A stretch of DNA of 64,000 nt from an uncultured virus (IMG/VR IMGVR_UViG_3300033808_000111) (lineage: Duplodnaviria > Heunggongvirae > Uroviricota > Caudoviricetes): the IMG/VR virus record IMGVR_UViG_3300033808_000111. The stretch is one strand, 5' to 3'. The notes beneath the pieces were generated by a model. The model was given only the letters and a program-made list of their open reading frames with translations, was not told where the DNA came from and did no database searches. The position numbers and the translations under genes were made by a program. Every line of letters begins with the position of its first letter. The first letter of the stretch is position 1. Of the stretch, positions 5,910-53,183 are shown piece after piece.

Positions 5910-7061
5910 ATGCCGAAGTGTCACCATTATCACCGCATCCACCCGCGCCTTCGCGGTGTTCGTTTGTCCCGCGCCGAGGGGTTCCCCTCGGGGACGCTCT
6001 CGCCCGCGCAGATCTTGGCCGCGTACGGCTTCAAACAAAATCAGTTCGCGGGCGCGGCTCCAGTGAAGATCGGCGTGGGCTCGCTCGGCGGAGCGGTCGT
6101 CCAGTCGGACATCGACAACTCCGTCGCGGCGTGGGGCATGCTCGCGCCGAACATCACGGCGCGCACTGTGGGCGGAGCAGCGCAGGACCCGACGGATGCT
6201 GACAGCTCGGTCGAGAACATGCTCGATCTTCTGCCCACCATCGCGTTCACCTGGTGGTGGCTCACGGGGACTGCCGCTGATATCACCATCACGTTCGGCC
6301 CGAACGCGTCCGGCGGGATGAAGCTCGTGACGGACGACCTCGTCGCGGCAGGCGTCAAGGTTGCGAGCTGGTCGTGGGGCTCGTCGGAGTCTTCGTGGGA
6401 CCCGGCGGAGCAAGATGCGCTCGCGGCTTCCTTCAAGGCGGCCGCGGACGCGGGCGTGACGTTCTGCGCGGCGTCGGGTGACAACTCAGTCGACGACGGC
6501 ACCGGCGCGCCGAGCCCCGATTACCCGGCTGGAGATCCGTGCGTCTGGGGTATCGGAGGCACGAAGCTCCAGATAGCGGCCGACGGCTCGCGCGCGAACG
6601 AGAGTGCGTGGGGCGACGGCGCTCCCGGTGACGAAGGGGGCGGTGGGGGCTTCGACCAGGTCTGGGCGATGCCCGGTTTTCAAGTGGGCATAGTACCCAC
6701 GATCCCGCAAGGAGCCTTCAGAGGCGTTCCTGATACTGCGGCCAACGCTGACCCCAATTCCGGATGGCAGATGTCAGCGAATGGCGGCTGGACGGTCGTC
6801 GGAGGAACGAGTGCAAGCTCGCCGTTCACCGCCGCGCTCATCGCGGTCGCGAAGGGCGTGGCGGCTGTCGCTGGCGGCAACCGAGCGCTCGCGGGTCTCT
6901 TGACGCCCGTCATCTACGCGGCGCGCGAGACCGCCTGCAACGACATCACGACTGGTTCGAACGGTGATCCCGCGACGGTCGGCTGGGACCCTGCGACGGG
7001 TCTTGGTTCTCCCGCGGGCGGCGCTTTCATCGCTGCGCTCACGTCTTCGTCGTCATCGTGA
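5910..7061 (+). CDS. S53 (sedolisin/kumamolisin-type) serine peptidase lacking the usual prodomain
   Basis: ENMLD (Glu/Asp of triad), ASGD (oxyanion Asp), GGTSASSP (Ser), RGVPD, DITTGSNG..WDPATGLGSP; RBS GGGAGG. Confidence 0.92.
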   Translation: MPKCHHYHRIHPRLRGVRLSRAEGFPSGTLSPAQILAAYGFKQNQFAGAAPVKIGVGSLGGAVVQSDIDNSVAAWGMLAPNITARTVGGAAQDPTDADSSVENMLDLLPTIAFTWWWLTGTAADITITFGPNASGGMKLVTDDLVAAGVKVASWSWGSSESSWDPAEQDALAASFKAAADAGVTFCAASGDNSVDDGTGAPSPDYPAGDPCVWGIGGTKLQIAADGSRANESAWGDGAPGDEGGGGGFDQVWAMPGFQVGIVPTIPQGAFRGVPDTAANADPNSGWQMSANGGWTVVGGTSASSPFTAALIAVAKGVAAVAGGNRALAGLLTPVIYAARETACNDITTGSNGDPATVGWDPATGLGSPAGGAFIAALTSSSSS

Positions 7062-7360
7062 GTGCCGCGCGTGAGCGAGCCGAGGTTCTCGCCGATCTTC
7101 TGATGGAGAAGCTCGGCGCAAAAATTGGATCAGGGAGACTTAGTGATCGTTTTCAAGAAGCAGGCGATCTTGTTTGGTTTGCTGCGTACGCTCCTGCTCC
7201 GATTGGTTGGGTTGATCCCGCTTTGGCCATTATCAACGTGAAGAAAGATGGTCAGATTTACATGGAGCGTACTCATCGTTCGGATGATCGAGCTTGGGCA
7301 GAGACAGTCGCCGCGGTCATTTCGGACGCAGGTCTCGGGAAGTGGCTCGAGATGCGCTGA
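7058..7360 (+). CDS. AEVLAD-domain family paralog
   Basis: RERAEVLADLLMEKLG..KDGQI..AGLGKWL. Confidence 0.8.
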   Translation: MSAARERAEVLADLLMEKLGAKIGSGRLSDRFQEAGDLVWFAAYAPAPIGWVDPALAIINVKKDGQIYMERTHRSDDRAWAETVAAVISDAGLGKWLEMR

Positions 7361-7482
7361 CCCATGTGGCCGCCCTGTCGTGCCCCTGGCACAACGTGGG
7401 CCCAGGCCCACATCGCCGCTGGTGCGGCGATAGGGCGTAGCGGACATATGCAAGGGCACCGAGCGAAGGAGCGAAGGTGATG
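7358..7482 (+). repeat. repeat family B, long copy with internal 3-hairpin insert; mini-ORF 7364-7480
   Basis: TGACCCATGTGG..CGTAGCGG.CA.ATGCAAGGGCACCGAG..GAAGGAGCGAAGGTGATG shared with 26991-27055. Confidence 0.85.
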
Positions 7483-8334
7483 CCGCGCGGTGATTTCAAA
7501 GACGCCGAGGAGGTGCTGCGCGAGGTCGGCGCCGAGCTGGGCCTCCGGCTCGATCGCCTCTGCATCTTTCCGCTCGACTCCATCACCGTCCAAGGGGCCG
7601 GCGGCTCGATCGAGTACGTCCCTGGCCTCGTGTACGTGGTCGAGGATCTCAAGGCCACGACGGACGACACGTGGGTCGTTGTTCGAGATGCGCGCCGCGC
7701 CCGCGAGATCGCGGTCGAAACGGCGCAGGTCGACATCTACGACGTGCCCGGCGATTACCCGTTCGATCTTCTTGCGGCACATGTGGATATGGCGCGGCTC
7801 CGTCGCGACGTTTACGAAGAAGCATACTCGTCGAACCTCGACGCGCTTGACGCTCCGCGAAATCGGCCCGAGGTGTTCTGGTCGTACTGGGAAGGAGAGG
7901 GTCTCAAGCTTCCCAAGTTTCCACTCGCTGGGGCAGAGCGGATGTTTCCGACTCAAGAAGAAGTCGAGGGTCTCGCTTCGGTGATGGCACGAAACCAAAC
8001 GCTCGATCCGCTCTCGTATCTTGTCGCGAACCACGGGCGCGCGGCCCAGCAGATGCTCGTGAACTCTCACGCTCTCAATACGAAGGACGCCGCCGAAGAA
8101 GCGGTTCGGCATTTCGGCGTCGAGTACTACCTCACGCGTGGTCGGGGGCATGTTCGCGAGACGCCCTCTGGTTATCAGTACTGGCTCTCCGGGCTGCCAA
8201 AGTTGAAACAAAGGCAGCCGCCTATTTCGAGGAAGTCTCCTCCTTCGGGGCGTCCGCTCGAGTACCACGAGTGGTGCGCGATCTGCGGTGGCTTGCACGG
8301 CACTTCCGAGTGTCCGCGGCAGTGGGAGCGCTGA
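7480..8334 (+). CDS. RETPSG family paralog
   Basis: DF..EEVLREVGAELG..WVVVRD..RETPSGYQYW. Confidence 0.8.
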   Translation: MPRGDFKDAEEVLREVGAELGLRLDRLCIFPLDSITVQGAGGSIEYVPGLVYVVEDLKATTDDTWVVVRDARRAREIAVETAQVDIYDVPGDYPFDLLAAHVDMARLRRDVYEEAYSSNLDALDAPRNRPEVFWSYWEGEGLKLPKFPLAGAERMFPTQEEVEGLASVMARNQTLDPLSYLVANHGRAAQQMLVNSHALNTKDAAEEAVRHFGVEYYLTRGRGHVRETPSGYQYWLSGLPKLKQRQPPISRKSPPSGRPLEYHEWCAICGGLHGTSECPRQWER

Positions 8335-8335
8335 G

Positions 8336-10852: not shown

Positions 10853-11091
10853 CCTCTTTGGACGATCAAGCTGTGTCGGTCGAGGTGACGGAGAAGCACT
10901 GCGTGTCCTGCGATGTGCTCCTGCCGCTCGATGAGTTCGGGTTAAAGCAAACCTCGACCGACGGTCACAAGTCGACGTGTAAGGCGTGTGACAAGACGCT
11001 CAAGGAGGGCGGCGAGATCGAGAGCGCTCGCAAGCCGTACGTCTACAAGGGCGTGCGCGGTGGGCCGCTCATCGCGGGGTACATTCGATGA
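10849..11091 (+). CDS. zinc-finger protein (CxxC..F..DG..CKxC, like HNH/EndoVII N-terminal fingers)
   Basis: CVSCDVLLPLDEF..DGHKSTCKAC. Confidence 0.65.
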   Translation: MTSLDDQAVSVEVTEKHCVSCDVLLPLDEFGLKQTSTDGHKSTCKACDKTLKEGGEIESARKPYVYKGVRGGPLIAGYIR

Positions 11092-11450
11092 CGCCCGAAG
11101 AGTTCAGCGAGGAGTTCGTCGACGACAAGAGGCGGGCGAGGGAGCACGCCGAGGTACTGAGCGACCTCTTGAAAGAAGCCGGCTTCGAGGTTTTCATTCG
11201 CGACATCGCTGGTCATCGTACCGTTTCTCTCTACGTGGCTGGCGGCGGCGGCGACGAGGTGTTCGTGCATCCTGATGCTTCGATCTTCTTTTCGCTTGGA
11301 CAGCGTGGCCTCGTGCGCGGTGTAGACAAGGTCCTCGTGAAGGCGGGCCTCGGGGACTACATCCACTACGAGCGTTTCCCGTGGCACGCGCGGGCGTTCG
11401 GTGTCGGTGGTCGTCGTTCCAAAGAGAAGGGGAAAATTGAAGAAGGATGA
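11088..11450 (+). CDS. AEVLAD-domain family paralog
   Basis: REHAEVLSDLLKEAGF..KAGLGDYI. Confidence 0.8.
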   Translation: MTPEEFSEEFVDDKRRAREHAEVLSDLLKEAGFEVFIRDIAGHRTVSLYVAGGGGDEVFVHPDASIFFSLGQRGLVRGVDKVLVKAGLGDYIHYERFPWHARAFGVGGRRSKEKGKIEEG

Positions 11451-11784
11451 GGAGCTTGCCCGTGTTCTCGAGGACCTCTTCCTCGAACGCGGATGGTCCG
11501 TGAGGCGCTTGCGCGTCGCAGGTGAGCCTCGGCTATATTGGGCTCTCGACGTCTTTCCTCCTCTCAGCACAGTCACTTCAGGTGGTGCGTGGATCTCTGT
11601 CTATGAAGACGGAGTCGTAATCGATGGTTTCGACAAAGCGAGGGTCGCGAAGCTCCTCGACGAGGTCTTCGGTTCAGAGTCGAAGATACGTCGGCCGTCT
11701 TTAGCCGAGCAGCGCTTGGCTTCTGGTAAGACTAGGACGCTGACCGAGGCGCTCAGCGTTGAAGGCCGCGCGAGGCGAAGGTAA
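11437..11784 (+). CDS. AEVLAD-domain family paralog
   Basis: ELARVLEDLFLERGW..EDGVVI; start uncertain (TTG). Confidence 0.7.
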   Translation: MKKDEELARVLEDLFLERGWSVRRLRVAGEPRLYWALDVFPPLSTVTSGGAWISVYEDGVVIDGFDKARVAKLLDEVFGSESKIRRPSLAEQRLASGKTRTLTEALSVEGRARRR

Positions 11785-12965: not shown

Positions 12966-13610
12966 GTGTCGCGAGCAAAGGAGCTGGCGGCTGTCTTGGA
13001 GGACGCGCTCCTCGAGGCGGGGTTCCGGATTCAGATCGCGCGGGCGCCCGATGGCTACTTGATCCGGCTGTTCGAGCCGGAGACGCGCGACCAGATCGCC
13101 GCGCTGCGTACGTTCGATGACGGGGGCGTGCAGCTCGACAGCTACAGGGACTCGGGCGAAGCATTTCGGATCTTGAAGAGGCTTGGGCTCGATAAGCTCA
13201 TCGAGGAGCGTTCGGCGCCGCGCACCGTTCCGGGGATGGCTGCGGGGCGCGTTCCTTATTCTCCCGAGGCGTCGCGCGCGAAGTACTATCTTCGGAATCT
13301 GCCGAACTGGAAGAGAGGCGATCCCACGACCGACTATCCGGGGCGCTTTATCGTCTACGTGAACGGCAAGCACGTCGATGATTTCACGGATCAAGCCGAT
13401 GCCATCCGGGCGGCGAAGAAGATCTGGGACGACCCAGCGACCGTTCGTCTCAAGCCTCCGCCTTGGAGGGAACACGAAGGGCCGCTAGAGCCCGAGGTCT
13501 CGGTGTGCTGGTTCGCGTCCGACGACGATCCGCGAGTCGGTTCGTTTTGGTTCACGGGTTTCTACCAGCTCGGCAAGATCGACCATTTTGGTCGGTTCGT
13601 TGGGTCGTGA
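12966..13610 (+). CDS. AEVLAD-domain paralog plus C-terminal cargo domain
   Basis: ELAAVLEDALLEAGF..DDGGV..KRLGLDKLI then unrelated C-half. Confidence 0.8.
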   Translation: MSRAKELAAVLEDALLEAGFRIQIARAPDGYLIRLFEPETRDQIAALRTFDDGGVQLDSYRDSGEAFRILKRLGLDKLIEERSAPRTVPGMAAGRVPYSPEASRAKYYLRNLPNWKRGDPTTDYPGRFIVYVNGKHVDDFTDQADAIRAAKKIWDDPATVRLKPPPWREHEGPLEPEVSVCWFASDDDPRVGSFWFTGFYQLGKIDHFGRFVGS

Positions 13611-13639: not shown

Positions 13640-14599
13640 ATGGCGAGTGTTGTAGAGGAGACGAGGGACGCTGAGCAGTGGTGCCACGTCATCGCTGACG
13701 CGCTCATGGATGAGCACTTCGAAGTAATCTCGCGTGGGATGCGAATGGGGCACTGCTTTCTTCAGGTCGAGGAGCGTGAGACGCCTCGCGGTCGCGCGAC
13801 GCTCATCGTCGACGACGACGGTTTCATCGAGATCACCGAGGTGGGCGGCGGGGGTGCCGAGAAGGTCAGGGCTGCCCTCGAGCGGCGCGGGCTCGGTGAG
13901 AACCTCATGGCCGGCGAGCCTCGCGGGTTCGACTTCGAAGAAGAGGAAGCCGTTCTGCTCGAGATGTCGAAGGAACTGGAGGTTTCGATGGACGATCTCG
14001 AGATCGCCCACTCGAGCCTCGAGCGCATGAGCGGCGGCACGCTTTGGGAGGTCACGCTCGGCAACCAGGAGTGGGAAGTCGCGCGCGATTACGACCAGGC
14101 ACGCGACTTGGCCATCGCTATGGTCGAGCAGGACCTCGAGACCGATCCCGAGATCTTCAGCCGCGATTTCCTCGCGAGGCACATCGACGAAGATCGTCTG
14201 CGTCGCGAGCTTTATTCCGACGTCCTCAACATGAGGGAAGAGGACCTCAGGGACGAAGCAGAACGTCGTCCTGACGATTTCTGGCGCCACTACGAACGCG
14301 CGGGCTTCGATGCTCCCGAAGAAGACGAAGAAGGCAACCGGCGCGACCCCGAAGACAGCGAGATCGAGGAGCTTGCCGAGCACGAGACAGACGAAGAGCT
14401 GCGCGACCCGATGCAATACCTCGAGAACATCTACGGCCGAGAAGATGCCGTGGCGCAGGCGCTCGAGATCGCTCCCATCAACACGCGTGAAGCTGCCGAA
14501 GACGTCGTGCGAGGCGACGGGCCCGGGCAACGTCTCTCGGGTTACGACGGTGAGCTTCACGAGACGCCGGTGGGGTGGCAGTACTGGAGAACGAATTGA
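13640..14599 (+). CDS. fusion of AEVLAD domain and acidic RETPSG-family domain
   Basis: WCHVIADALMDEHF..DDGFI..RRGLGENL then DFEEEEAVLLEMSKEL..HETPVGWQYW. Confidence 0.85.
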   Translation: MASVVEETRDAEQWCHVIADALMDEHFEVISRGMRMGHCFLQVEERETPRGRATLIVDDDGFIEITEVGGGGAEKVRAALERRGLGENLMAGEPRGFDFEEEEAVLLEMSKELEVSMDDLEIAHSSLERMSGGTLWEVTLGNQEWEVARDYDQARDLAIAMVEQDLETDPEIFSRDFLARHIDEDRLRRELYSDVLNMREEDLRDEAERRPDDFWRHYERAGFDAPEEDEEGNRRDPEDSEIEELAEHETDEELRDPMQYLENIYGREDAVAQALEIAPINTREAAEDVVRGDGPGQRLSGYDGELHETPVGWQYWRTN

Positions 14600-36984: not shown

Positions 36985-37144
36985 ATCCGAGGTCGGGCTG
37001 GAAGCCCGAGCGAACGACGAGACCGATCGAGCGAAGCGAGGGAAGGTCATGAATCCGAGGTCTGGCTGGAAGCCCGAGCGAACGACGAGACCGACCGAGC
37101 AGGGTCCTATCGAGCAAAGCGAGATGGGAGAGGGAAGGTCATGA
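36978..37144 (+). repeat. repeat family A tandem (68-bp + 92-bp); mini-ORFs 36981-37052 and 37049-37144
   Basis: three GTCATGA junctions. Confidence 0.92.
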
Positions 37145-40576: not shown

Positions 40577-41001
40577 AAGGGATGAAGGTCGAGGTACTGC
40601 GCGACAGCCTTGAGCGCTTTGTATCCGTCATCGTAGACCTGATCAGAGGTGCCTTGTGCTTCCACGGCCGCCGCGATCCCGATCGGCACGTCGCGCGCGA
40701 CGAAGAGCGCGTGGGGCTCGCGAGCGTCGCGCAGGGCTCGCCAGCCCGAGTACCTCGGGTTGTCGGCGCTCGGCATGCTCGACGCGGCGTATAGGGCACC
40801 GTTTCGTTTCCAGTCCGGCCACCTGGTCTCTCCCGTGCCGTAGACTGCAACGACGAGCCTCGGGATGCGTTCGCGAGACCCTAGAAACGCCGGATAGACG
40901 GCGAGTTCGCCGAGGCTTGCGTCGCGTAGGAGACCCTCGGTGACGTGGGGTTTTATTTCGTCGTTCACGAGGACGTGCGTGCCTTCTTTGGTCTTTTGCA
41001 C
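40543..41001 (-). CDS. hypothetical protein
   Basis: protein-like composition; RBS GAGAGG on minus strand. Confidence 0.55.
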   Translation of the reverse strand: MQKTKEGTHVLVNDEIKPHVTEGLLRDASLGELAVYPAFLGSRERIPRLVVAVYGTGETRWPDWKRNGALYAASSMPSADNPRYSGWRALRDAREPHALFVARDVPIGIAAAVEAQGTSDQVYDDGYKALKAVAQYLDLHPFYEFPRDWTRE

Positions 41002-41495
41002 GGCGATCTGGGAGATGAACCTCTCGTCGCTCCTTCTTACCGTGATGATGTAGGCCGACGGGCGCGACTCTCGAGCACCTCTTCGAACCTGGTACTCGGC
41101 GACGCCGGAGACCTTGTATGCCCGTCCATGATCGCGTCAGCGATCACTTGTCCAAGCTCCACGGGGTCGATTTCCCTCTTCGTCACCTTCGTCACAGCGA
41201 GATGATACCAGTTGGTGCCTGCGACTTGCAGCTTGGCAGCGGGTGCGCGAAGATCCCTCTCATGATAGGCCGGAAGACTCGAACGACTACGATTCACTGC
41301 CCCTCAACCGGCTCGGCGCACGCGCTTCGCCACGAGCTGGACAAGGTGGGCGCGCTCTCTCGACGCCGGGGACGCGCGGTTTTCACGACCGCGCGGAGCA
41401 AAACGATTGAGCGCGCAAAGAGGCGCGCGCGTGGAAGTCAGCACCGAGGCGGTGTTTTGTCGAGGCGAGCATCGTACAGGATGACGCGGTGAGGC

Positions 41496-42518: not shown

Positions 42519-43115
42519 ATGGCGAGTGGCGGTCAGGCCGCAGTCGTTGGCGACGCGCTCATGGATCTCGGTTTCCGCGTCACTTTTCATTCGCGTCCAA
42601 GCGGCGAGCACCTCTGGGTCACCAAAGGCAAGCGCACTCCTTGGCAGGGCGGGGATTACGACTTGCGCGTAGCTGGGGCAATGATCGAAGTGATCTCCGG
42701 CGACAAAGAGGCGTTCGATCTCCTCGTACGTGCTGGTCTTGGAGGACATTCGCGTCAGGCGTTCATCAATAACGAGACACCGCTCTACTTCGTGCTCGTT
42801 CGCTCTCCCGGTCTCATTCCCGAGAACCTCATCGTCGCTACCTCGCGCGCTCGCGCTGGCAAGGCAGCGCGTGGTCAAGCACGGTGGTGGGCCAATGACG
42901 TTGCCATTGGAGCAGCTGCTGTGGATGACATGTTCGAACAGATCCGGCGAGACTCGGATGATTTTACTCCGATCTGGCGCGACCGCCTCTCGAGCTTGGA
43001 AATTTCATTTGGTACGCTCGATGAGGTGATTCAAGAGCTAGAACAGCACGGAGTCTCGCAAGCGCTTGAAGGAAGAATAGAACGAAGCGGTGAAGGAAGA
43101 GGTGGTGAGAGATGA
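42519..43115 (+). CDS. AEVLAD-domain paralog plus cargo
   Basis: QAAVVGDALMDLGF..RAGLG; alternative start 42498. Confidence 0.8.
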   Translation: MASGGQAAVVGDALMDLGFRVTFHSRPSGEHLWVTKGKRTPWQGGDYDLRVAGAMIEVISGDKEAFDLLVRAGLGGHSRQAFINNETPLYFVLVRSPGLIPENLIVATSRARAGKAARGQARWWANDVAIGAAAVDDMFEQIRRDSDDFTPIWRDRLSSLEISFGTLDEVIQELEQHGVSQALEGRIERSGEGRGGER

Positions 43116-43585
43116 CGATGTTCCCGTTCGATCCCCGCGTCTCCTCGTCGCTCGCGCTCGCGGAGGCTCAGGGGAACAAACCTTGCGGTTGCCGTTGGCG
43201 CTTGTATGGCGGGCGTCCTCTCCGCGAAGTCTCCGATCCCGAGCGCGCCACGCACGCTGACCTCGCCCAGGTCTGCGTCATGCACCGGCGTTGGCTTGGG
43301 GCGATCTTCATCGACCAGAAAAAGCCCCCGAACTTCAGCCACCCTCCGCCCGGGGGCCTTCCGCTCGTGGGACCCGCCTACCAGAGCGCGATCGGCGTGC
43401 CGGGCGGTGGTGGAGGCGTGACGATGCAGCCGTCCATCGCGGGCGCCGCTGTGCCCGAGCAGGTGGGCAACGTGGCGCAGGTCGATGGGCCACTCCATCA
43501 AGCGTCGCGCGACGTCGCGAGGATCGAAGAGGCCCACGAGAACCTGCTCCCGAAGGGTGCCGGTGGCAAGCCGGAGAAGAAATGA
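43112..43585 (+). CDS. hypothetical protein
   Basis: ATGA overlaps on both sides. Confidence 0.6.
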   Translation: MTMFPFDPRVSSSLALAEAQGNKPCGCRWRLYGGRPLREVSDPERATHADLAQVCVMHRRWLGAIFIDQKKPPNFSHPPPGGLPLVGPAYQSAIGVPGGGGGVTMQPSIAGAAVPEQVGNVAQVDGPLHQASRDVARIEEAHENLLPKGAGGKPEKK

Positions 43586-43953
43586 AGAAGCGAGCCGCTG
43601 AAACTCGACTCGAGGAGTCGCGGATGGAACGAGCCGGGGAGCAGGCGGAAGTGCTGGCCGACATGCTTCACGAACTCGGTTTCGGCGTGAGCCAAGTCCG
43701 ACGTTCGTGGGGTGCCGTCTACGCGGCGAGCTTCGGCGTCATCAATTCCGGTTCTCTCGGTCAGAAACATCCTGATACCACTGCGCGAGTCTTGGTTTAC
43801 TCGGGCGGCAGCGTCATGGTCAGCTCGGCCTCACAGCGGTTTCTTCTGAAGCTGCGCGCCTTGTTCGACGTGTTCGAGTCGTACAGGGTTGAGCCTGGTC
43901 TCAGTTACGACTACGAGGTGGGCGGTCAGGCTTTCTCGGCGGAGCTTCGGTGA
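43582..43953 (+). CDS. AEVLAD-domain family paralog
   Basis: EQAEVLADMLHELGF..SGGSV. Confidence 0.82.
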   Translation: MKKRAAETRLEESRMERAGEQAEVLADMLHELGFGVSQVRRSWGAVYAASFGVINSGSLGQKHPDTTARVLVYSGGSVMVSSASQRFLLKLRALFDVFESYRVEPGLSYDYEVGGQAFSAELR

Positions 43954-43957
43954 AGTG

Positions 43958-44509
43958 ATGGGACGCCGCGCCGACGAGCTTGGTCAGGTGCTCATGGATC
44001 TCCTTCGAGAGGCGGGTTTCGACGTTCACGAATGGGATCCCGTGACGGCGGCCGGAGGACGCGTCGTGCGCTTCATCAGCGTGAAGTGGCCTCATGAGGC
44101 CCCGACCTTGGCGTGGCTCGCGCCGGTCGACGAGGGAAAGATCGTGATCGACTGGAAGGGACCGGGCAAGCGCGGACAAGAGGTCATCGACGCGATCGAG
44201 CGCGCGGGCTGGGGCGATCGGCTCGTATCGAGCTTTCAGGTGCTCGACGAGCCAAGTGTAGAGGTGATGACTCGAGTCGTGCGCGATACTTATCCTTCGG
44301 AGAGCTTCGAGTTCACAGAGTTCAAGGACGGGACAGTGCGCGTCGGACCGATGTCGCCATCGATGGGCCAGCGCATCGAAAAGCGTCTGCGCGAGCTTGG
44401 AGTGCTCGAACGCAAAGGGATCTACTTCGCGTTCGAGAGCGTCGGCCGGTTCGTGCAGCCCAACGTGGGCTACCTTTTCTGGGGCGACCCGGGATGGATT
44501 CAGCGCTGA
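43958..44509 (+). CDS. AEVLAD-domain paralog plus cargo
   Basis: ELGQVLMDLLREAGF..EGKI..ERAGWG. Confidence 0.82.
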   Translation: MGRRADELGQVLMDLLREAGFDVHEWDPVTAAGGRVVRFISVKWPHEAPTLAWLAPVDEGKIVIDWKGPGKRGQEVIDAIERAGWGDRLVSSFQVLDEPSVEVMTRVVRDTYPSESFEFTEFKDGTVRVGPMSPSMGQRIEKRLRELGVLERKGIYFAFESVGRFVQPNVGYLFWGDPGWIQR

Positions 44510-44534
44510 GCTGAAGCCTGGTAAGCTTCGGAAC

Positions 44535-44930
44535 ATGGCAGCGGAAGCGAGCAAGGCGGAAAAGAGCGCGCTCGTGCTCGCGGACGCGATCCAGGAGCAG
44601 GATCCGGAGAGGTTCTCTTACTTTCCCCAGGCTTTCAGTCGTTTCGAGACCGAAGCCCATTCAGTTCCTCCCGCCTATCGCGTGACCTACCTCAAGTCGA
44701 GCGGATTCCCGCCGGCACCCGACTCGTACCTTCTGACCGTGTGGGGGATCAGGAGCGAGGTCGCCCGCCGTTTCCCGGTGGCAAGCGCTGCGGGGGCCCG
44801 CGCGCACGGCGACAGAGTCTGGCTTGTCGACTTTTTTGTTGACCCGCGCGGCCGCGTCCTCGTCGACTCGGAGCGCGAGAACGGGTTTTCAGACGAGCTT
44901 CTTCGATCGGTTGGGTGGGTCGAGAGATGA
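44535..44930 (+). CDS. AEVLAD-domain family paralog
   Basis: SALVLADAIQEQ..RGRV...ERENGFSDELLRSVG. Confidence 0.78.
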   Translation: MAAEASKAEKSALVLADAIQEQDPERFSYFPQAFSRFETEAHSVPPAYRVTYLKSSGFPPAPDSYLLTVWGIRSEVARRFPVASAAGARAHGDRVWLVDFFVDPRGRVLVDSERENGFSDELLRSVGWVER

Positions 44931-45754
44931 CTTCCTCGAGCGCGGCTTCTTTGGGCAAGCAGGCCGGACAGTGGGCCCAGGTGTTCTCGGACGCTCTTTT
45001 GGAGCTGGGTTATGCCCCCGAGCTGAGGGAGCATCTGGGCGCTCGGCAAGTGCCCGGGGACCGAGTCTGGTGGGAGATCGCGATCTACGACCCGCAAGAG
45101 AGATGGGGCAGGGAGTTCGTCGGGGAGATCCGCGTCTTCGGCCACGGCGAGATCGTCATCTCGGACGAAGGGCAGCGGCCCGGCATCGCGCGCAAGGTCC
45201 TCGATGAGACCCGGCTCGGGTTCGAAGACGTCTCACCGGCGCTCGCGCAGGAAGCCGGCGCCGAGTTCGCGCAGGACAGCGCTGATGAGGTCGACTTCCA
45301 GTACAACCTGCGCGAGCAGCTCGCGGAAGGTGCGGAGATGGAAGCACGCGACCCGAAGAGCGTCGTCCCGGAGTTCACGACAGAGAATCTAGCGAGCAGC
45401 AAGCGCAGTCGAGAGCGGCTCGCACGCGAGATGCTCGAGGACTTCGGACGCGACGTCGCGCGCGATCTGGACACCGACACGGTCGAACGCTACTTCGAGC
45501 GTGTAGGACTTCCTTCGCGTGCCGCGCTCGATTTTTCGGCAGCATTTCTTTCTGGCATGCGTCGCGAGCTTGCCAGCAAGAACATGCGGGAGTGGCTCGC
45601 CGAGATGCACATACTGCCGGTCGTCGAGGCGATCCTCGCGAGTGCGCGAAGCGCGTCCGCTGGGCCCCGCGGAGGGAATCCGACGAGGGCGGGTGCGCGA
45701 AGCGCGCCCGCTAGGCCCCGCGGAGGGAATCCGACGAGGGCGGGGACGAGATGA
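44927..45754 (+). CDS. AEVLAD-domain paralog plus cargo shared with 46065; ends in family C tandem
   Basis: WAQVFSDALLELGY; LA.EAG...A..F..G.R..L. Confidence 0.82.
   Translation: MTSSSAASLGKQAGQWAQVFSDALLELGYAPELREHLGARQVPGDRVWWEIAIYDPQERWGREFVGEIRVFGHGEIVISDEGQRPGIARKVLDETRLGFEDVSPALAQEAGAEFAQDSADEVDFQYNLREQLAEGAEMEARDPKSVVPEFTTENLASSKRSRERLAREMLEDFGRDVARDLDTDTVERYFERVGLPSRAALDFSAAFLSGMRRELASKNMREWLAEMHILPVVEAILASARSASAGPRGGNPTRAGARSAPARPRGGNPTRAGTR
45642..45744 (+). repeat. repeat family C, 51-bp tandem x2 in frame
   Basis: encodes ARSAxAxPRGGNPTRAG twice. Confidence 0.92.
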
Positions 45755-46068
45755 CCAAGAAAACCAAGAAGACCAAGAAGACGACTACGACCGAGGCCCG
45801 CGCCCTCGTGCTCGCCGACGCGCTGATGGATCAGGGGTTCGAGGTCTCGGCCCACGAGTACGAACCGCGCGATGGAGGTCCCTTCTTTTACTTGAACGTT
45901 CGCCGACGGGGAGAAGGATGGATGGGCGGCGACTACGTCGAGCTTCTCGTGGGACGTTCGGGCTCGATCTACGTCACGCACCCGCGCCGCGACACGAGCA
46001 CGCTCAGAGAAGTGCTCGACGCGGTCGAGAGCGCCGGGTTCGGTAGACTCTTGGAGAAGAACGCGTGA
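45751..46068 (+). CDS. AEVLAD-domain family paralog
   Basis: RALVLADALMDQGF..SGSI..ESAGFG. Confidence 0.85.
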   Translation: MTKKTKKTKKTTTTEARALVLADALMDQGFEVSAHEYEPRDGGPFFYLNVRRRGEGWMGGDYVELLVGRSGSIYVTHPRRDTSTLREVLDAVESAGFGRLLEKNA

Positions 46069-46760
46069 TAAATCGTCGCGGATATGAGCAGGCCGCGGTG
46101 CTCTCGGACGTGATCGAAGAGCAAGGGTACGTCGCAATCGTTCAACAGACGCACAGCGGAGACTTTTTCGTGCTGGCCAAGCACAAGAAGTCAGGCGCTC
46201 CAGCAGCGGCGTTCTGGGTCTACGGCCCCGGCGACGTTAGCCTCGGCCTCTACGGTCGTGAGGAGGACATCCTTGGCAAGGCTGGTCTGTCACGCCTCGG
46301 CAAGGAGCGAGATCAAACGCCGCTGACAGTCGCGGAAAAGGAGAATCTGGCGTTCGAAGCGGGCAAGATCTATGCGAGTCAGGAGGTTGAGTCGGCAGCA
46401 TTTCTACGTCGCGTGACCAATGAAATCGAGATTTCTACGACAGAACTCTGGTCGCGCGCGAACGAACTCTGGAACAGATCAGAGCTTCGCGATCAGTTCG
46501 CGCGAGGCTTGATCACTGGGCTCGGGCAGCAGATGGAGCAAGCCGGAGTAGCGCCGCGAGCTTCGCAGGATCTCAAGCGAGCAGGTCTTTCTCTCGAGGA
46601 TCTGCGAGGGACTTCCATCGGTGCGGAGTTCTGGCGCGGAGTTCGCGATCGTCTTGGACAAAAGAGCACGCAGTCCTTCGTCGCAGATGATCTCGTCATG
46701 CCGGCTTTGGAGGAGATCCTTCTGCGACGACGAGCGAGCAGTCGCGGAGGAGTACGATGA
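46065..46760 (+). CDS. AEVLAD-domain paralog plus cargo shared with 44927
   Basis: QAAVLSDVIEEQGY..KAGLS; LAFEAGKIYA..FWRGVRDRL. Confidence 0.82.
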   Translation: MINRRGYEQAAVLSDVIEEQGYVAIVQQTHSGDFFVLAKHKKSGAPAAAFWVYGPGDVSLGLYGREEDILGKAGLSRLGKERDQTPLTVAEKENLAFEAGKIYASQEVESAAFLRRVTNEIEISTTELWSRANELWNRSELRDQFARGLITGLGQQMEQAGVAPRASQDLKRAGLSLEDLRGTSIGAEFWRGVRDRLGQKSTQSFVADDLVMPALEEILLRRRASSRGGVR

Positions 46761-47518: not shown

Positions 47519-47850
47519 TGACCTCTTCGGCGGCAGCGATTCGCGGCTGGACGGACCGGGAGGCCGAGGAGGCGGGCGACGCTGACGGTCGTGCCTGGGC
47601 GCTCCGGACGATGCTCGCCGGTTCGGACGCGCTCGCGCGCTACGCCTCGGGTGCGGGCGAGAGGCGGCAGATGGCGCAGAAGATGGAGACCCTGATGCAG
47701 ATCGTCGCGCGGCAGAACGTCCGGCGTTTCGGGGCGAAGGACAACGCTCGGCGCGAGAGCAAGGTGCACCTCTACGTCGAGGCCTATGTCGCCGGCGCGA
47801 TGGAGGAGCTTGGTCGCGAGGCTTCGAGGCGCGGGGTGGAAGTTCGATGA
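47518..47850 (+). CDS. hypothetical protein
   Basis: coupled on both sides. Confidence 0.6.
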   Translation: MTSSAAAIRGWTDREAEEAGDADGRAWALRTMLAGSDALARYASGAGERRQMAQKMETLMQIVARQNVRRFGAKDNARRESKVHLYVEAYVAGAMEELGREASRRGVEVR

Positions 47851-48431
47851 CTCCTTCAGCGCGCGCCTCGGTCCTTTCGGACGCGATGGAGGAGCTTGGC
47901 CTCGAAGCCTATGTCCACGCGGCCTCGTATCCGAAGAACGCCAAGTACGTGATCGTAGACGAGCCTGCAAACGTTCCGCAGGGCAGAACACGGATGCACT
48001 TGTTTATGGCCCTTCTCACCGAGGACGACTCGATCGTGACGTGGGACGCCGAGCCGATGCGACCGGGACTTGCGCGGGAGCTTTTGTCGCGCGCGGGTCT
48101 CTGGAAGTTCTTCGAGCCCAAGAAAGTCACGTACGATGTTCACCTGGTCGAGTGGGACCTCGGCGGCAATCCTCGTCCGAGCAGAGATTCCATCGGACAA
48201 GTTGAGATCTGGACCGGACGCCGCTGGAACTCTCTCGAGACTGAGCTGCTCTTGTCTCTCGAAAAGTCTCTCCCGGGAGTGACTCGTGATCTCGAGGCTG
48301 TTGATCCTGGTGATCTGGGCGGCGTGCCGCTTGCGCAAGCAGATGCGTTCGACTTGCCGAGACGCATCGAGCTGAGAGAGCGCAGGGGAGAAGGCATTTG
48401 GCGTTTCGAGCTTCGAAGGGTGTTGAAGTGA
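47847..48431 (+). CDS. AEVLAD-domain paralog plus cargo shared with 48559
   Basis: RASVLSDAMEELGL..RAGLWKF; GN..SIG..PR....R......FEL. Confidence 0.82.
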   Translation: MTPSARASVLSDAMEELGLEAYVHAASYPKNAKYVIVDEPANVPQGRTRMHLFMALLTEDDSIVTWDAEPMRPGLARELLSRAGLWKFFEPKKVTYDVHLVEWDLGGNPRPSRDSIGQVEIWTGRRWNSLETELLLSLEKSLPGVTRDLEAVDPGDLGGVPLAQADAFDLPRRIELRERRGEGIWRFELRRVLK

Positions 48432-48562
48432 ATCCGAGATCGAGCTGGAAGCTCGAGCGCCTTTGCGGCGAAGCCGCGACGGCGTCTCCTGCTGCGAAGA
48501 CGCCGGAGGCGTCGTTAGCAAGAACGACGCGATGGACTGACCGTAGGGACGGAACGTCGTGA
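48428..48562 (+). repeat. repeat family A, expanded 131-bp variant with extra hairpins; mini-ORF 48428-48562
   Basis: GTGAATCCGAGATCGAGCTGGAAGCTCGAGCG..AACGACG..GGAACGTCGTGA. Confidence 0.75.
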
Positions 48563-49107
48563 AGCTCGATGCGAAGGCCATCGACGAGCGCACGGCCGTG
48601 CTCTCGGACTCGATCCAGGACCTCGGGTTCGGAACGCAGATCTACTATTGGAATGGTCTCGGGTATCTAGTGGGAGTGAGCGATCCTTCGAGGCCACCGA
48701 ACGAAGACTGGATGACCGAGATTTCCATCAATGAGGACGGCAGCGTGAGCGTCAGCGGCGAGCGCGAGCGCGGTTTCTCCGAGCAGCTCTTGAGGCGCGC
48801 CGCGCCCAGTTGGCGACTCTTGATCCACTACGACAACGGTTGGGAGGTTCACCCGATCGCCGCCGTGATGAACGAAGAAGGCAACTGGGAAGTCGAGAAG
48901 ATTCGCCCATCCATTGGTCGGATCGTGACCCAAGGTTGGTTCAAAGAGCGCATCGTCAGAGCGCTCCACGAGAAGCGCTACTTGCTGCGCTCGTTCGGTC
49001 CCGAAGACGTCGTTCTTGATACCGTTTCCGGCCACGGTCCGAGGACGCTTTGGGTGCGGGACGTAACGACCGATGAACCGCTCTTCGAGCTTAAGGAGAT
49101 CTGGTGA
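48559..49107 (+). CDS. AEVLAD-domain paralog plus cargo shared with 47847
   Basis: ERTAVLSDSIQDLGF..EDGSV..ERERGFSEQLL. Confidence 0.85.
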   Translation: MKLDAKAIDERTAVLSDSIQDLGFGTQIYYWNGLGYLVGVSDPSRPPNEDWMTEISINEDGSVSVSGERERGFSEQLLRRAAPSWRLLIHYDNGWEVHPIAAVMNEEGNWEVEKIRPSIGRIVTQGWFKERIVRALHEKRYLLRSFGPEDVVLDTVSGHGPRTLWVRDVTTDEPLFELKEIW

Positions 49108-49781
49108 AAGCCGCCGCAAGTGAATGGTCCGCGGTACTCGCCGACGGCCTCATGCAGCTCGGTCACGAGGTCCAATTCGAAGAGGAGCGTCACGGCATAG
49201 GTGGTCGCGCCGGAGAGGGCGTCCACATGCGCGTGCTCCATGCGACCGAGGGAGGTGCTGGTGAGCTGGCTCTCGTCTTCGTGCGAAACGACGGAGCGAT
49301 CGAGGTCCAGAGAGAATGGCGTCCTGGTTTCATCTCGGACGAGATGAAGAAGCTGGGCCTCTCAGGAGCGAAGCTCGCGCCGTCGCCCATCTCGAAGAGC
49401 GAGCTGATGGGTCTCGCTTCGCGCTTGAGCTTTCGCACTGGCGGCTCGCCGCCAAAGATCCTCAGCGGCGGATACCGCTGGTCGGACGCCAACGAGAGCG
49501 CGACGTTCGATACGACGACCGAGGACACGAACGTGCCCATGACGACGCTCGTCTCGCTCTTCGACGACGGGAGCTGGGCGCTCACTTTCTTCGAGGCGGA
49601 AGAGGCGCGTGGTGGCGACCTCCGCGATTCTCTCTGGAACCGGCTTTACGGGTCGAGCGATTCTCTCACGCCTTTGCTCGACGAGATGGAGGGCGACGTC
49701 GACGAAGCCCTCGACTACATCGACGATCTCGAAGCGCGGAGGCAGGAGCAGCGGTTTCGGGAAGAAGAGGACGAGGATTGA
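49104..49781 (+). CDS. AEVLAD-domain paralog plus acidic cargo
   Basis: WSAVLADGLMQLGH..NDGAIEVQREWRPGFI..KLGL. Confidence 0.85.
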   Translation: MKAAASEWSAVLADGLMQLGHEVQFEEERHGIGGRAGEGVHMRVLHATEGGAGELALVFVRNDGAIEVQREWRPGFISDEMKKLGLSGAKLAPSPISKSELMGLASRLSFRTGGSPPKILSGGYRWSDANESATFDTTTEDTNVPMTTLVSLFDDGSWALTFFEAEEARGGDLRDSLWNRLYGSSDSLTPLLDEMEGDVDEALDYIDDLEARRQEQRFREEEDED

Positions 49782-49782
49782 G

Positions 49783-50136
49783 CTACTGCAAGTGTGCGCC
49801 GAGCCCAGCGCGCTCGATGACGGCCCTGGCAGAAGCGACGGCCTCTTTCCCGTGGGCGGCGATGTGCCCCCACGAGGCGCGGAGCGAGATCCGCTCGTCT
49901 TCGTCGAGGCCGACCGTCACCCATTCGGCGTCGGGATTCCCGGATTCCCTCGTGTCGAAGTAGTGTGCCTTTGCTCGTGCGAAGGCCAGCTCTATCGCCC
50001 ATTCTGACGAAATCGCGACCGGCGTCGCTCTCCACCCGGCGTCGAGAAACAAGTCCCGAAGGACCTCGAGTCGCATCTTCTCCCGCGCGAGCTGGGCCTC
50101 GGTCCTTCCGACGGTGTGGTTGCGACTCGCAGCCAT
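49783..50136 (-). CDS. AEVLAD-domain family paralog (inverted pair, 2)
   Basis: LEVLRDLFLDAGW..IERAGLG. Confidence 0.82.
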   Translation of the reverse strand: MAASRNHTVGRTEAQLAREKMRLEVLRDLFLDAGWRATPVAISSEWAIELAFARAKAHYFDTRESGNPDAEWVTVGLDEDERISLRASWGHIAAHGKEAVASARAVIERAGLGAHLQ

Positions 50137-50138
50137 GG

Positions 50139-50501
50139 CTATTCCCACCTCCGAGGAGCCAGATGACTGCCGAGCCCGGCGCGCTCGATGACGGCGCGCG
50201 CAGCTTCGATGGCTGCCTCTCCTGCCTTGCCAGCGATGTCGCCCCACGAAGCTGAGAGCGTGATCCGGTCGCTCTCGTCGAGGGCGACGGAAACCCATTC
50301 GAAGTCGATTTCGGGAAGAGGCTCCCGCGGCTCGGTTTGCTTCACCTCGAACATGTATCGATCAAGAGCCACCGGTCGTCTCATAAAGCCGTGCACGTTG
50401 ATGACGCTCTGCTCGACGCGCGTGACTTTCCATCCGACGTCGAGAAAGAGATCGCGGAGCACTTCGAGGCTCTCTTTGGCTCGCTCGAATCGGTTAGCCA
50501 T
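50139..50501 (-). CDS. AEVLAD-domain family paralog (inverted pair, 1)
   Basis: LEVLRDLFLDVGW..IERAGLG. Confidence 0.82.
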   Translation of the reverse strand: MANRFERAKESLEVLRDLFLDVGWKVTRVEQSVINVHGFMRRPVALDRYMFEVKQTEPREPLPEIDFEWVSVALDESDRITLSASWGDIAGKAGEAAIEAARAVIERAGLGSHLAPRRWE

Positions 50502-50544
50502 GCTGCGTCTTGTGATCGTAGCCGAGCGCGGCGAGAATGTAGAG

Positions 50545-50997
50545 ATGACAGCTGCTCGACCTTCGCGGCTTACGCCGCTGCGCCGAACGAACCGTCAGGA
50601 CGCTCACGCGTCCTTCGGTGACCTCGCAGAGCGCGCGCTCCTCTTCGGCGTGGGCGGCTATGTGCTCGAGAACATGCTCTTCGGAGAGCGCAAGTCGGCA
50701 GTGTTCGGCGGTCGCGACATTCCCTTTCTCCCCGTCTACGCCGTCGGTGGATCGCTCGTCACGGTCCTCGGGCCGAGCTTGAAGGCGGCCGGACTGCCCT
50801 CCTGGTGGCGGGCCGTCGTTTACGCGGTGAGCTTGTCGGGAATCGAGTGGGTGGGGTGCAAGATCGACAGAGACTTGGGGGCGTGCTCTTGGGATTACTC
50901 GGGGCGTTCGTGTGCGGCTGTTGGGGAGGGGTGCGTGGATGCGGCGCACGCGGTGATGTGGGGAGCATTGGGGCTCTTGGCCGAGAGGCTCGCTTGA
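50545..50997 (+). CDS. ABC_trans_CmpB-like membrane protein ('putative ABC transporter permease')
   Basis: G..GY..E..PFLPVY..G..IE...G..WDYS..G......WG. Confidence 0.75.
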   Translation: MTAARPSRLTPLRRTNRQDAHASFGDLAERALLFGVGGYVLENMLFGERKSAVFGGRDIPFLPVYAVGGSLVTVLGPSLKAAGLPSWWRAVVYAVSLSGIEWVGCKIDRDLGACSWDYSGRSCAAVGEGCVDAAHAVMWGALGLLAERLA

Positions 50998-51272
50998 AAT
51001 CGGCACGCGACGCGGCCCGAGATCGCGCGGCGGTCATTTCTGATGGCCTTCAGGAGCTGGGGTACAAGACTCAGTTTTCTCGAGCACCGAGCGGTGGCTT
51101 TGAGGTCGTTTGGGTGGATCGGTTTGACGGTATTCCGCTCGGCGAGTTCTGGGTCAAAGATGATGGGATGATCGAGATCTCTTATCTCGGCGAAGAAGAG
51201 ATCTCGAGGGCCATCGAGAAGCTTGGTCTCGGCAAATGGATTTGGCGCGAGTCGGGAGTCGGTGAGCGCTGA
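50994..51272 (+). CDS. AEVLAD-domain family paralog
   Basis: DRAAVISDGLQELGY..DDGMIEI..EKLGLGKWI; TTGA overlap. Confidence 0.85.
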   Translation: MKSARDAARDRAAVISDGLQELGYKTQFSRAPSGGFEVVWVDRFDGIPLGEFWVKDDGMIEISYLGEEEISRAIEKLGLGKWIWRESGVGER

Positions 51273-51547
51273 TGACTTCTAATAAGCGCGAGGAGCGAGC
51301 GGAAGTCATCGCCGATGGTCTTCGAGACCTCGGTTACGACGTGTCGTGGTTCTCGATACTTCAAGACTTGATGATCGTAGATCGAGAACACTTTGCGATC
51401 GGCGATTATCTTGTGCACGACGATGGGATGATCGAGATTGTTCACGAGTATCAGAGCGAGTATCATCGCGAACGCGGTGAGCTGACTGCTGCGCTCGAGA
51501 AGCTTGGTCTTGGAAAATGGATTCTGCGCGAGCCGGTGAGGCGCTGA
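51272..51547 (+). CDS. AEVLAD-domain family paralog
   Basis: ERAEVIADGLRDLGY..DDGMIEI..EKLGLGKWI. Confidence 0.88.
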   Translation: MTSNKREERAEVIADGLRDLGYDVSWFSILQDLMIVDREHFAIGDYLVHDDGMIEIVHEYQSEYHRERGELTAALEKLGLGKWILREPVRR

Positions 51548-51859
51548 TGATTTCGAAGGCCGCGCGAGAAAGCCGAGGTCGTCGCCGATGGTCTCCAGGA
51601 ATTGGGTTACTTAGTCGAGTGGTGGTCGAAGGTCATCGGACGCCGTTCGAAGGATTTGATGTGCGTGGATCGTCGGCTCGGACCGACTGGTCACATCGTC
51701 GCGATCGGCGATTACGTCGTCTCGGACGACGGGATGATCGAGATCCTCCACGAGTACGAGCGGGGCGAGCTTACAGGTGCGCTCGAGAAGCTTGGTCTCG
51801 GCAAGTTCATCGCGCGACCAGTGCCGGAGCGCGCGCTCGTCGAGACTAGAAGGCGTTGA
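51547..51859 (+). pseudogene. AEVLAD-domain paralog with frameshift in first ~8 codons
   Basis: ATG 51547 gives MISKAARE; REKAEVVADGLQELGY..EKLGLGKF lies in the +1 frame with no start codon before the motif. Confidence 0.72.
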
Positions 51860-51862
51860 CCG

Positions 51863-52225
51863 ATGGCCTCTTCCCGCTCTCATCTGACCACGTCTCGCGT
51901 CCGGGACATGGAACGCGAGCGGCAGCAGCGCGCCGAGTGGGCTGCGGTCCTCGAGGATGCGATACAGGACATCGGGTATCTAACGCGCAGATCTTGGGAA
52001 GAACCAGGCCGCATCGTGATCTACGAACCTCTTTCACCGGACGCCAAGATTCTGGAATGGCATGGCACTCCTGTCCTTGTCGACAGCAAACTCGTCGGCG
52101 AGTTTTCCGTGCTCAGTCACCATCACATCTACATCATGAGTGGCGGCAGTGACCGTCGCGCGGTGAGAGAGATCATCAATCGCGCCGGCTTCCCGGACCT
52201 CGAGGACTTCTCGGAGATCTTCTGA
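51863..52225 (+). CDS. AEVLAD-domain family paralog (alternative start 51908)
   Basis: WAAVLEDAIQDIGY..NRAGF. Confidence 0.8.
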   Translation: MASSRSHLTTSRVRDMERERQQRAEWAAVLEDAIQDIGYLTRRSWEEPGRIVIYEPLSPDAKILEWHGTPVLVDSKLVGEFSVLSHHHIYIMSGGSDRRAVREIINRAGFPDLEDFSEIF

Positions 52226-52725
52226 TGGCCACCAAGTCTCTCCGCGAAGCCATCGAGACGGCGAACCAGTGGGGAGCCGTGATCGGCGACTCGCTGATGG
52301 ACCGCGGCTACGAGTGCAAGATCGTCCAGAGCACCAACCAGGGAAAAGACACGCCGGCAGTCGTGCTCGTCGTGCACAGAAGGCGCCATCGCGGCTGGGT
52401 CGGGGACTTGGTCGTCAGGTTTCACCGCGGAAAGATCCGGATCGAGGTCTTGTGGATCCCGAACGCCGAGTCGAGGAATGAGCTTGTCCGGGCGGTCGAG
52501 GATGTCGGGTTCGAGGTTTCCGGGGAGGAACGAAGACTGGTGGATGTGGATATTCCAATCGCATTGGCGGAGTTGCTGGAAGGTTGGGAAGATGAAAATG
52601 CACGGTTCGTTTACCGGGCGTGGAAGGAAGCGGGCGGTGCAGACGATGACGCTGCGGGTTTCGATGCGTTCCTCCAGGCACCTGGAGACATCAGCAGGAG
52701 ACGGGCCGGGTCCAGGCGAGCGTGA
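52225..52725 (+). CDS. AEVLAD-domain paralog plus cargo; stop supplied by family D repeat
   Basis: WGAVIGDSLMDRGY..RGKI..EDVGF. Confidence 0.8.
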   Translation: MATKSLREAIETANQWGAVIGDSLMDRGYECKIVQSTNQGKDTPAVVLVVHRRRHRGWVGDLVVRFHRGKIRIEVLWIPNAESRNELVRAVEDVGFEVSGEERRLVDVDIPIALAELLEGWEDENARFVYRAWKEAGGADDDAAGFDAFLQAPGDISRRRAGSRRA

Positions 52726-52794
52726 GCGAGCGGGGCACGTCTCCGCAGGAGACGGGCCGGGTCCGGGCGAACGTGAGCGAGTGGGGCACGTCTC
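52694..52794 (+). repeat. repeat family D, 51-bp tandem x2, each closed by GAGACG/CGTCTC stem
   Basis: direct reading. Confidence 0.92.
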
Positions 52795-52820
52795 GAGGCA
52801 GGGTTGCCGCCCTACGTGCT

Positions 52821-53183
52821 ATGACCGCTAAGCGCGCAGAAGTGAAGCGCGCGGAGGTTCTCGCGGTCCTTGGCGACCTCTTCGAGGACGAGGGGTTTCT
52901 CGTCGACCGAGAGTGGACACGTGACAGCATCAGGGTGCTGAGCGACATCGAGACCGCCTACGTCACGATGGTCCCCACCAAGTACAGCGACGAGGACCAC
53001 GCCGTCGAGGTCGAGGTCCGCACGGACGGCCGGCTCGCTGGAAGGCTCCGAGCGATCTTGAAGAGGATCGGGTACGACGTCGGAACCATGAGGGCGTTCA
53101 CGGTGAAGAGCGGGTGGTTCGCAGAGGGCAGGGGATGGAACTTCGTGGCCAGTTGGCTGAAAGTTCCCGAGGCAAGGACGTGA
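52821..53183 (+). CDS. AEVLAD-domain family paralog (in-frame upstream GTG 52722 inside repeat)
   Basis: RAEVLAVLGDLFEDEGF..KRIGY. Confidence 0.78.
   Translation: MTAKRAEVKRAEVLAVLGDLFEDEGFLVDREWTRDSIRVLSDIETAYVTMVPTKYSDEDHAVEVEVRTDGRLAGRLRAILKRIGYDVGTMRAFTVKSGWFAEGRGWNFVASWLKVPEART

Follow-up and report, generated by a model that had tools for sequence, protein, structure and literature searches.

Lineage-specific arrays of paralogous genes are a known phenomenon in large phages. The closest described case is that of Bacillus phage G, in which a zinc-ribbon domain has expanded to about 35 copies, a situation termed 'unprecedented' in the section of the published analysis that deals with it (Iyer et al. 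2021, PMC7824862). Here we describe a comparable expansion, designated family A, in a 64,000-nucleotide (nt) stretch of DNA from an uncultured virus (Caudoviricetes; IMG/VR record IMGVR_UViG_3300033808_000111), the whole of which is referred to below as the window. Like the zinc ribbons as that section presents them, family A comprises tens of diverged copies of a small domain in one phage lineage, arranged in clustered arrays and with a function that is only inferred; unlike them, it is an acidic alpha-beta domain that lacks metal ligands and is often fused to unrelated modules (PMC7824862). Family A is new to every library searched, and two of its traits are unusual: how densely it is packed for a genome of about 122 kb, and how repeatedly it serves as an N-terminal module. 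With a genome of this size, and not of about 500 kb as in phage G, the share of the genome occupied by family A is much higher than that of the phage G expansion. A second comparison is offered by the PE/PPE proteins, the LXG/polymorphic-toxin proteins and the multigene families of large eukaryotic DNA viruses, in which a conserved N-terminal domain precedes a variable C-terminus. Family A likewise places a small conserved domain at the head of many unrelated C-terminal regions, but it has no sequence or fold relation to these proteins and most of its members consist of the domain only.

The original prediction listed about 28 copies of one unrecognised domain, and all 28 listed starts proved to open open reading frames (ORFs) whose products bear the expected motifs, namely a helix of the type ERAEVLADAL-E-GF, a beta-rich part with a DG-I-V turn, and an end of the type L-KAGLG-WL, within a domain of about 85–100 amino acids (aa). 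A hidden Markov model (HMM) trained on 18 clear members picked up the remaining 10 among the 939 six-frame ORFs of the window, with E-values from 2.5e-18 to 2.6e-3, and none of the reversed and shuffled control ORFs scored better than 0.39. A profile search of 1.84 billion representative proteins returned 117 at E <= 1e-3, which together with P0001 gave 118 proteins, 27 of them the window's own and 91 outside representatives. When the HMM was broadened to 28 window and 90 outside sequences, every one of the 28 copies was matched at E <= 7e-10, against E >= 0.13 for the controls. Pairwise BLAST at 1e-6 connects five family-A members only, and the family is thus detectable by profiles alone.

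The possibility that the alignment fails beyond the first helix, which would indicate a convergent amphipathic motif, was tested by deleting helix 1 from both the model and the targets. Under these conditions, profiles from 14 random members still retrieved 55 of 84 held-out members at E < 0.01. A helix-1-less profile built exclusively from outside sequences found 22 of the 28 window copies at the same threshold and ranked 27 of them above all unrelated or reversed ORFs, the single intruding ORF being itself a family-A member, the 29th copy described below. Only copy 43582 fails past helix 1 (E 1.4). Therefore, homology extends across the whole domain and is not that of a convergent amphipathic helix.

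The 29th copy, absent from the earlier list, consists of two minus-strand ORFs (41303-41040 and 41136-40546) that match consecutive parts of the profile, with a C-terminal extension 48% identical to that of the outside member P0064; it is a family-A gene broken by a frameshift. A frame break had also been marked at 51547, and it was confirmed that the ATG frame and the family frame lie one base apart there, at an A-run. Both breaks recur, without a differing letter or a gap, in an independent assembly made from X1, the one public run that contains this DNA, at about 13x depth; it is labelled a peat metagenome and probably represents the sample of origin. Eighteen of the listed copies do lie within 42519-53183, as had been stated; in this dense array, family-A genes cover 8,383 of 10,665 nt, with many start/stop overlaps of 1 or 4 nt. 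Over the whole window they sum to 12,886 nt, that is, 20% of its length. Two further members, P0041 and P0045, are encoded on a 121,733-nt contig, the same size as the contig carrying the window proteins; the genome (121.7-kb contig) therefore has at least 31 copies. The description of a massive expansion is thus justified by the profile statistics, with 29 copies in 64 kb, and we regard it as practically certain that family A is a real, new and expanded family. The 29 copies in the window are as follows.

7058..7360, plus strand: family-A protein of 100 aa, domain only; the upstream subtilase-like gene runs over its start.
11088..11450, plus strand: family-A protein of 120 aa with a short basic tail.
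11437..11784, plus strand: family-A protein of 115 aa with a TTG start; among the weakest members (E 1.4e-3 with the 18-member HMM, 9.9e-11 with the broadened HMM, 0.053 without helix 1).
12966..13610, plus strand: family-A domain with a 129-aa extension.
13640..14599, plus strand: family-A domain fused to a 224-aa module of a second family, family B.
31234..31539, plus strand: family-A protein of 101 aa, domain only.
35514..36098, plus strand: family-A domain fused to a phrog_6246 module; an orthologue occurs in the related contig stretch L027.
36098..36400, plus strand: family-A protein of 100 aa, domain only.
36652..36984, plus strand: family-A protein of 110 aa.
37141..37497, plus strand: family-A protein of 118 aa; the intergenic stretch before it holds a tandem 59-nt repeat.
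40546..41303, minus strand: the 29th copy, frame-broken, with helix 1 in one frame and the rest, plus an extension of about 115 aa, in another.
42519..43115, plus strand: family-A domain with a 115-aa extension; the dense array opens with this gene.
43582..43953, plus strand: family-A protein of 123 aa, by the helix-1-less test a partial member, whose profile match stops before the C-terminal helix motif.
43958..44509, plus strand: family-A domain with an 88-aa extension.
44535..44930, plus strand: family-A protein of 131 aa, in which long insertions separate helix 1 from the last strands.
44927..45754, plus strand: family-A domain with a 167-aa extension related to those of 46065 and the outside protein P0074.
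45751..46068, plus strand: family-A protein of 105 aa with a Lys/Thr-rich N-terminus.
46065..46760, plus strand: family-A domain with a 146-aa extension.
47847..48431, plus strand: family-A domain with a 99-aa extension.
48559..49107, plus strand: family-A domain with a 99-aa extension related to P0112.
49104..49781, plus strand: family-A domain with a 129-aa acidic extension.
49783..50136, minus strand: family-A protein of 117 aa; recent paralogue of its neighbour 50139..50501 (48% identity).
50139..50501, minus strand: family-A protein of 120 aa.
50994..51272, plus strand: family-A protein of 92 aa with a TTG start; its sequence was used for the structure model.
51272..51547, plus strand: family-A protein of 91 aa; recent paralogue of both neighbours.
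51547..51859, plus strand: family-A gene with a one-base frame break directly after the start codon.
51863..52225, plus strand: family-A protein of 120 aa.
52225..52725, plus strand: family-A domain with a 60-aa acidic extension.
52821..53183, plus strand: family-A protein of 120 aa, last gene of the array (E 7e-7 with the 18-member HMM, 0.015 without helix 1).

The AlphaFold2 model, computed on an alignment of 28 sequences (predicted local distance difference test score, pLDDT, 85.9; predicted template modelling score, pTM, 0.72), comprises the elements H4-21, E25-30, E37-42, E48-54, E60-62 and H67-76. According to this model, the sheet is antiparallel and four-stranded, and both helices, the long N-terminal one and the C-terminal one, pack against the same face of it. 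The expected pattern of conserved ends and a hypervariable middle was borne out over 118 sequences, which show an overall identity of about 20%. Conserved are D17 (118/118), V14 (115/118), G23 (105/118) and G78 (99/117); position 24 is aromatic and position 21 is Glu or Asp in 97% of the sequences each, and the Asp57-Gly58 turn, Ile60, Leu74 and Gly78-Leu79-Gly80 are strongly kept. Conservation thus maps to core-type positions together with D17, E10 and E/D21. The strands retain alternating hydrophobics only: outward strand and loop columns have an entropy of about 3.6-4.0 bits, close to the maximum, the loop columns reaching about 3.9 bits, and the loop between strands 2 and 3 ranges from 2 to 36 residues. 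In the predicted fold, the helical side is the conserved one and the sheet side the variable one.

The domain had been called unrecognised, and the searches agree. No Pfam family matched any of 24 full-length window members (E <= 0.1) or 56 outside members, PHROGs gave no match for the domain, and NCBIfam and PADLOC, the latter a set of defence and not counter-defence models, matched none of 28 window copies. A tblastn search of 50,697 phage records yielded no family-A match, and the best hit among PDB sequences was partial (E 0.004). At the level of structure, Foldseek against the PDB returned nothing at E <= 1e-3, and a viral structure library returned uncharacterised proteins only, at E >= 4e-3. 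The best Foldseek match was to XisI-like proteins (3d7q, 2nwv, 2nlv); at E 0.024 it is not significant, and no Pfam XisI match was found in the 24 full-length members. A match to DUF1815 in the ESM Atlas (0.77) was discarded as lying under the noise bar, which left no usable match in that resource. Full-text searching of the literature gave an overview of jumbo phages and nothing on family A, a family without a motif being barely searchable by words.

Several solved structures do share the general layout of two helices on one face of a small antiparallel sheet, among them the KA1 domains of Chk1 (5wi2) and MARK, the RnlA NTD/NRD (4i8o/6y2s), the N-domain of RNase H3 (4py5) and the METTL16 VCR (6m1u). 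In the TBP-like fold, represented by RnlA NTD/NRD, the RNase H3 N-domain and DUF302, the unit is beta-alpha-beta4-alpha. Between 65 and 82 of the 92 residues of the family-A model superpose on these KA1/TBP-like folds at 3-4 A. The 24 members searched against Pfam at E <= 0.1 gave no KA1 match.

The family-A copies are old and under purifying selection. For 17 of 28 copies, the best-scoring match is an outside protein and not one of the paralogues from the window, and only two recent duplication groups were recognised, namely 50994/51272/51551 (45-59% identity) and the minus-strand pair (48%). At shared residues, synonymous-codon identity was 0.447 in helix 1 and 0.418 in helix 2, against 0.452 and 0.401 expected from codon usage. 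This agreement with expectation rules out gene conversion as the source of the conserved ends, which are therefore held by protein-level selection in genes that are old and saturated at synonymous sites. The gene-wide ratio of nonsynonymous to synonymous divergence (dN/dS) was 0.18-0.59 in the four youngest pairs, at a synonymous divergence (dS) of 0.8-1.6. The pair 35514/36098 is the single outlier in codon identity: its helix-1 DNA is 76% identical over 51 nt, and 90% over the 40 nt of 35535-35574 and 36137-36176, although the proteins are elsewhere about 16% identical. A local recombination event could account for this similarity.

Family A occurs only in a narrow group of uncultivated viruses, about 120-190 kb in size. 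Thirty outside proteins were looked up, and every one of them sits on a metagenome-type contig of between 1.1 and 186 kb; the sources are JGI/IMG, ENA and Logan, plus a single NCBI record, and all 30 are either nameless or termed 'hypothetical protein'. L027, a 20-kb stretch of a 133-kb relative (GC 0.57), carries three copies and is syntenic with positions 31.9-38.9 kb of the window, at protein identities of 28-62%; it has an orthologue of the 35514 fusion gene but not the three copies that follow 35514 in the window. Family B, in contrast to family A, is widespread: it gave 125 matches and lies on 47 IMG/VR contigs, some of which are complete, terminally repeated genomes of 111-125 kb. No family-A copy was found in 36 whole related viral records or in 852 kb of sequence flanking 47 loci, in a search whose positive control, L027, returned its three copies, and IMG/VR scans with P0040, P0038 and the helix-1 pattern yielded no family-A contig. 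Family A is therefore an innovation of a narrow sub-lineage within a broader clade, viral by the IMG/VR classification.

The window itself has a high GC content (0.60-0.66) and densely packed small genes, nearly all on the plus strand, which include Ku, DHFR, NUDIX, helicase, metallophosphatase and HAD_SAK_2 genes and a gene for a phrog_6077 protein, the latter occurring in 111 phage records. No virion gene was found in the window, so that its viral assignment rests on gene content and on the related IMG/VR contigs. The window has no tRNA. A promoter scan gave no sigma-70-like sites, and terminator-like sites were at chance level.

The domain is used as a module. In the window, 12 of 29 copies carry extensions of at least 40 aa, mutually unrelated except for those of 44927 and 46065, and 17 consist of the domain only. 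The 91 outside representatives divide into 50 domain-only proteins, 36 with an N-terminal domain followed by an extension, three with a C-terminal domain and two with multiple matches; one of the outside proteins, P0035, combines three tandem family-A copies with a DUF192 domain in 848 aa. About 40% of the members thus place the domain N-terminal to unrelated C-terminal modules, and 47 extensions fall into 30 clusters, without Pfam families. Related viral contigs encode four of these modules free of the family-A domain, namely family B, the phrog_6246 module, the 49104 extension (in relatives L048, L031 and L036) and the 44927 extension. The large ORFs of the relatives that carry the 49104 and 44927 modules matched no informative Pfam or PHROG family. 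A conserved N-domain with diverse C-modules is a feature shared with polymorphic effector trafficking domains; secretion/export or packaging machinery, toxin domains and immunity genes were not recognised among the annotated window genes, where no aimed test for them was made.

In the clearest orthologue pairs, the family-A domain is 26-34% identical and the attached module 49-60%. The domain of 13640 is 51% identical to that of P0038, which has a different C-terminus, and 27% to that of P0093, with which its extension shares 60% identity. Being closest to P0038 by domain and sharing its module with P0093, 13640 indicates that modules are shuffled and that the family-A domain is the faster-changing part. 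The earlier suggestion of a common carrier or docking domain thus receives indirect support from the N-terminal fusions and the four free-standing modules, but the domain-only copies, both in the window and outside, mean that carrying cannot be its only role.

We propose, with a rough probability of 0.4, that a conserved scaffold and a variable binding face make up a panel of specific binders, some of which would aim modules. On the basis of the predicted structure, the hydrophobic stripe of helix 1, Asp17, Gly23 with the adjacent aromatic, the Asp-Gly turn and the Gly-Leu-Gly end of helix 2 would form a rigid frame, leaving the open sheet face and the loops, notably that between strands 2 and 3, free to vary, so that each copy might have its own ligand. 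The phage would in this way make a panel of specific binders, probably directed against host or competitor proteins and produced in a non-structural phase. Some copies may act alone, and others would direct an attached module to its target.

Several observations weigh against this proposal. None of the fold matches offers a functional analogy above noise, the four youngest pairs gave no sign of gene-wide positive selection, and the window lacks a virion gene. Trp, Tyr, Phe and Arg make up 22% of outward strand positions against 17% in loops; we rejected this enrichment as a sign of binding, as it is small, the positions are non-independent and strand propensity suffices to explain it. The variability of the sheet and loops could merely reflect a lack of constraint, and the invariant Asp with the acidic stripe on helix 1 might mark a shared functional surface, which would favour docking. 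As to the anti-defence or host-interaction arsenal suggested in the original prediction, nothing specific to anti-defence emerged: the PADLOC search was empty, and the fold match to the solved anti-defence protein Acb4 (9e4w) was weak (E 0.19, template modelling score 0.37).

The most serious alternative, although doubtful, is a shared docking or adaptor domain, in which the helix pair (Asp17, Glu10, Glu/Asp21 and Gly-Leu-Gly) would bind one hub, be it a machine of the host or an assembly of the phage, or would join paralogues, the variable parts and modules being what is recruited. The presence of Asp17 in every sequence at so low an overall identity and the spacing of the acidic stripe at i, i+3/4 on helix 1 are consistent with such a surface, as are the N-terminal grafting onto at least four modules that are free-standing in relatives, with 30 extension clusters overall, and the occurrence of the domain in C-terminal position and in tandem. 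Nevertheless, each conserved position can equally be explained as a core, turn or helix-clasp residue, the domain-only copies have no cargo to bring, no candidate hub was identified, and a domain tied to one conserved hub is not expected to diverge faster than its cargo. An extended version, a hub-and-spoke adaptor system in which the Asp17/Gly-Leu-Gly helix pair docks all members on one host or phage machine and more than 30 heads or modules bring targets or activities, appears rather unlikely to us. The layout shared with KA1 and TBP-like folds would also accommodate a domain binding nucleic acids, lipids or small molecules, such as an RNA-binding regulator or a sponge for signalling nucleotides. 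KA1 domains bind acidic lipids or RNA through a basic surface, which is not seen in family A, where 24 of 27 domains are acidic (pI, isoelectric point, < 7) and no basic patch is conserved, and we consider such a role quite unlikely.

A function in the virion is very unlikely as well, whether the domain targets proteins for packing into the particle and delivery with the DNA or the copies are themselves accessory or internal virion components, possibly cleaved by the neighbouring subtilase-like protease. The placing of a conserved module at the N-terminus of diverse proteins does recall capsid-targeting arrangements, and the first copy overlaps the end of the subtilase-like (Peptidase_S8) gene (5865-7061), but the copies lie among DNA-metabolism and not structural genes, no virion gene or cleavage motif was identified in the window, and a folded domain of 90 aa far exceeds known targeting peptides. 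Finally, the two frame-broken copies among 29, with breaks reproduced in the independent assembly, and the extreme divergence of the middles would suit largely dispensable duplicates drifting without a specific function. This explanation is highly improbable, given the 27 intact ORFs despite saturated synonymous divergence, dN/dS below 1 with conserved positions held at the protein level, and the orthologues kept in related genomes.

Some other elements of the locus were recorded. An intergenic element of about 60-100 nt with a short GC-rich hairpin is repeated at 22512-22613, 23183-23258, 36974-37032 and 37042-37100, with a partial copy at 48429-48459; it lies directly upstream of start codons (e.g. 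22610 and 37141), as a tandem duplicate before 37141, and could be a regulatory or terminator-type cassette. Tandem duplications of 51 nt occur at 45638-45739 (94%, in the 44927 extension) and 52691-52792 (92%, at the end of the 52225 gene), and the contigs of the independent assembly break at both. The ORFs 30839-31237, 31550-31969 and 41918-42286 share a near-identical 5' end (about 30 nt) and encode proteins starting MAR(P/R)EH L(H/Q)PY; from this likeness they may constitute a third small paralogue family, two members of which flank the family-A copy 31234. A Ku homologue (15077-15940), 36% identical to mycobacteriophage Ku, lies between the two family-A clusters, and a transposase of the DDE insertion sequence (IS) type with a SWIM zinc finger (55202-56578, minus strand) lies in a minus-strand block just past the array. 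The transposase was dropped as a hint to the host, its best genome match being an archaeal metagenome-assembled genome (MAG) at only 33% identity. The family-B homologue P0123, on a 14.5-kb contig labelled as a Polyangiaceae MAG, is a possible, unverified hint to myxobacterial rather than actinobacterial hosts for the wider clade.

Few parts of large phage genomes are as poorly understood as their paralogue arrays, and the present array, with about 30 genes in 64 kb, is unusually dense. Its confidently predicted fold without a known relative, its invariant Asp and its repeated fusion to other modules make family A a tractable system in which to ask what purpose such arrays serve, and whether they supply panels of binders or a docking handle. 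If the hub-and-spoke arrangement were true, family A, built on a new small fold, would be for a bacterial virus what the F-box, BTB or ankyrin multigene families are for giant eukaryotic viruses. In addition, two confidently folding and previously unannotated families, family A and the widespread family B, are added to the protein universe of soil viruses.

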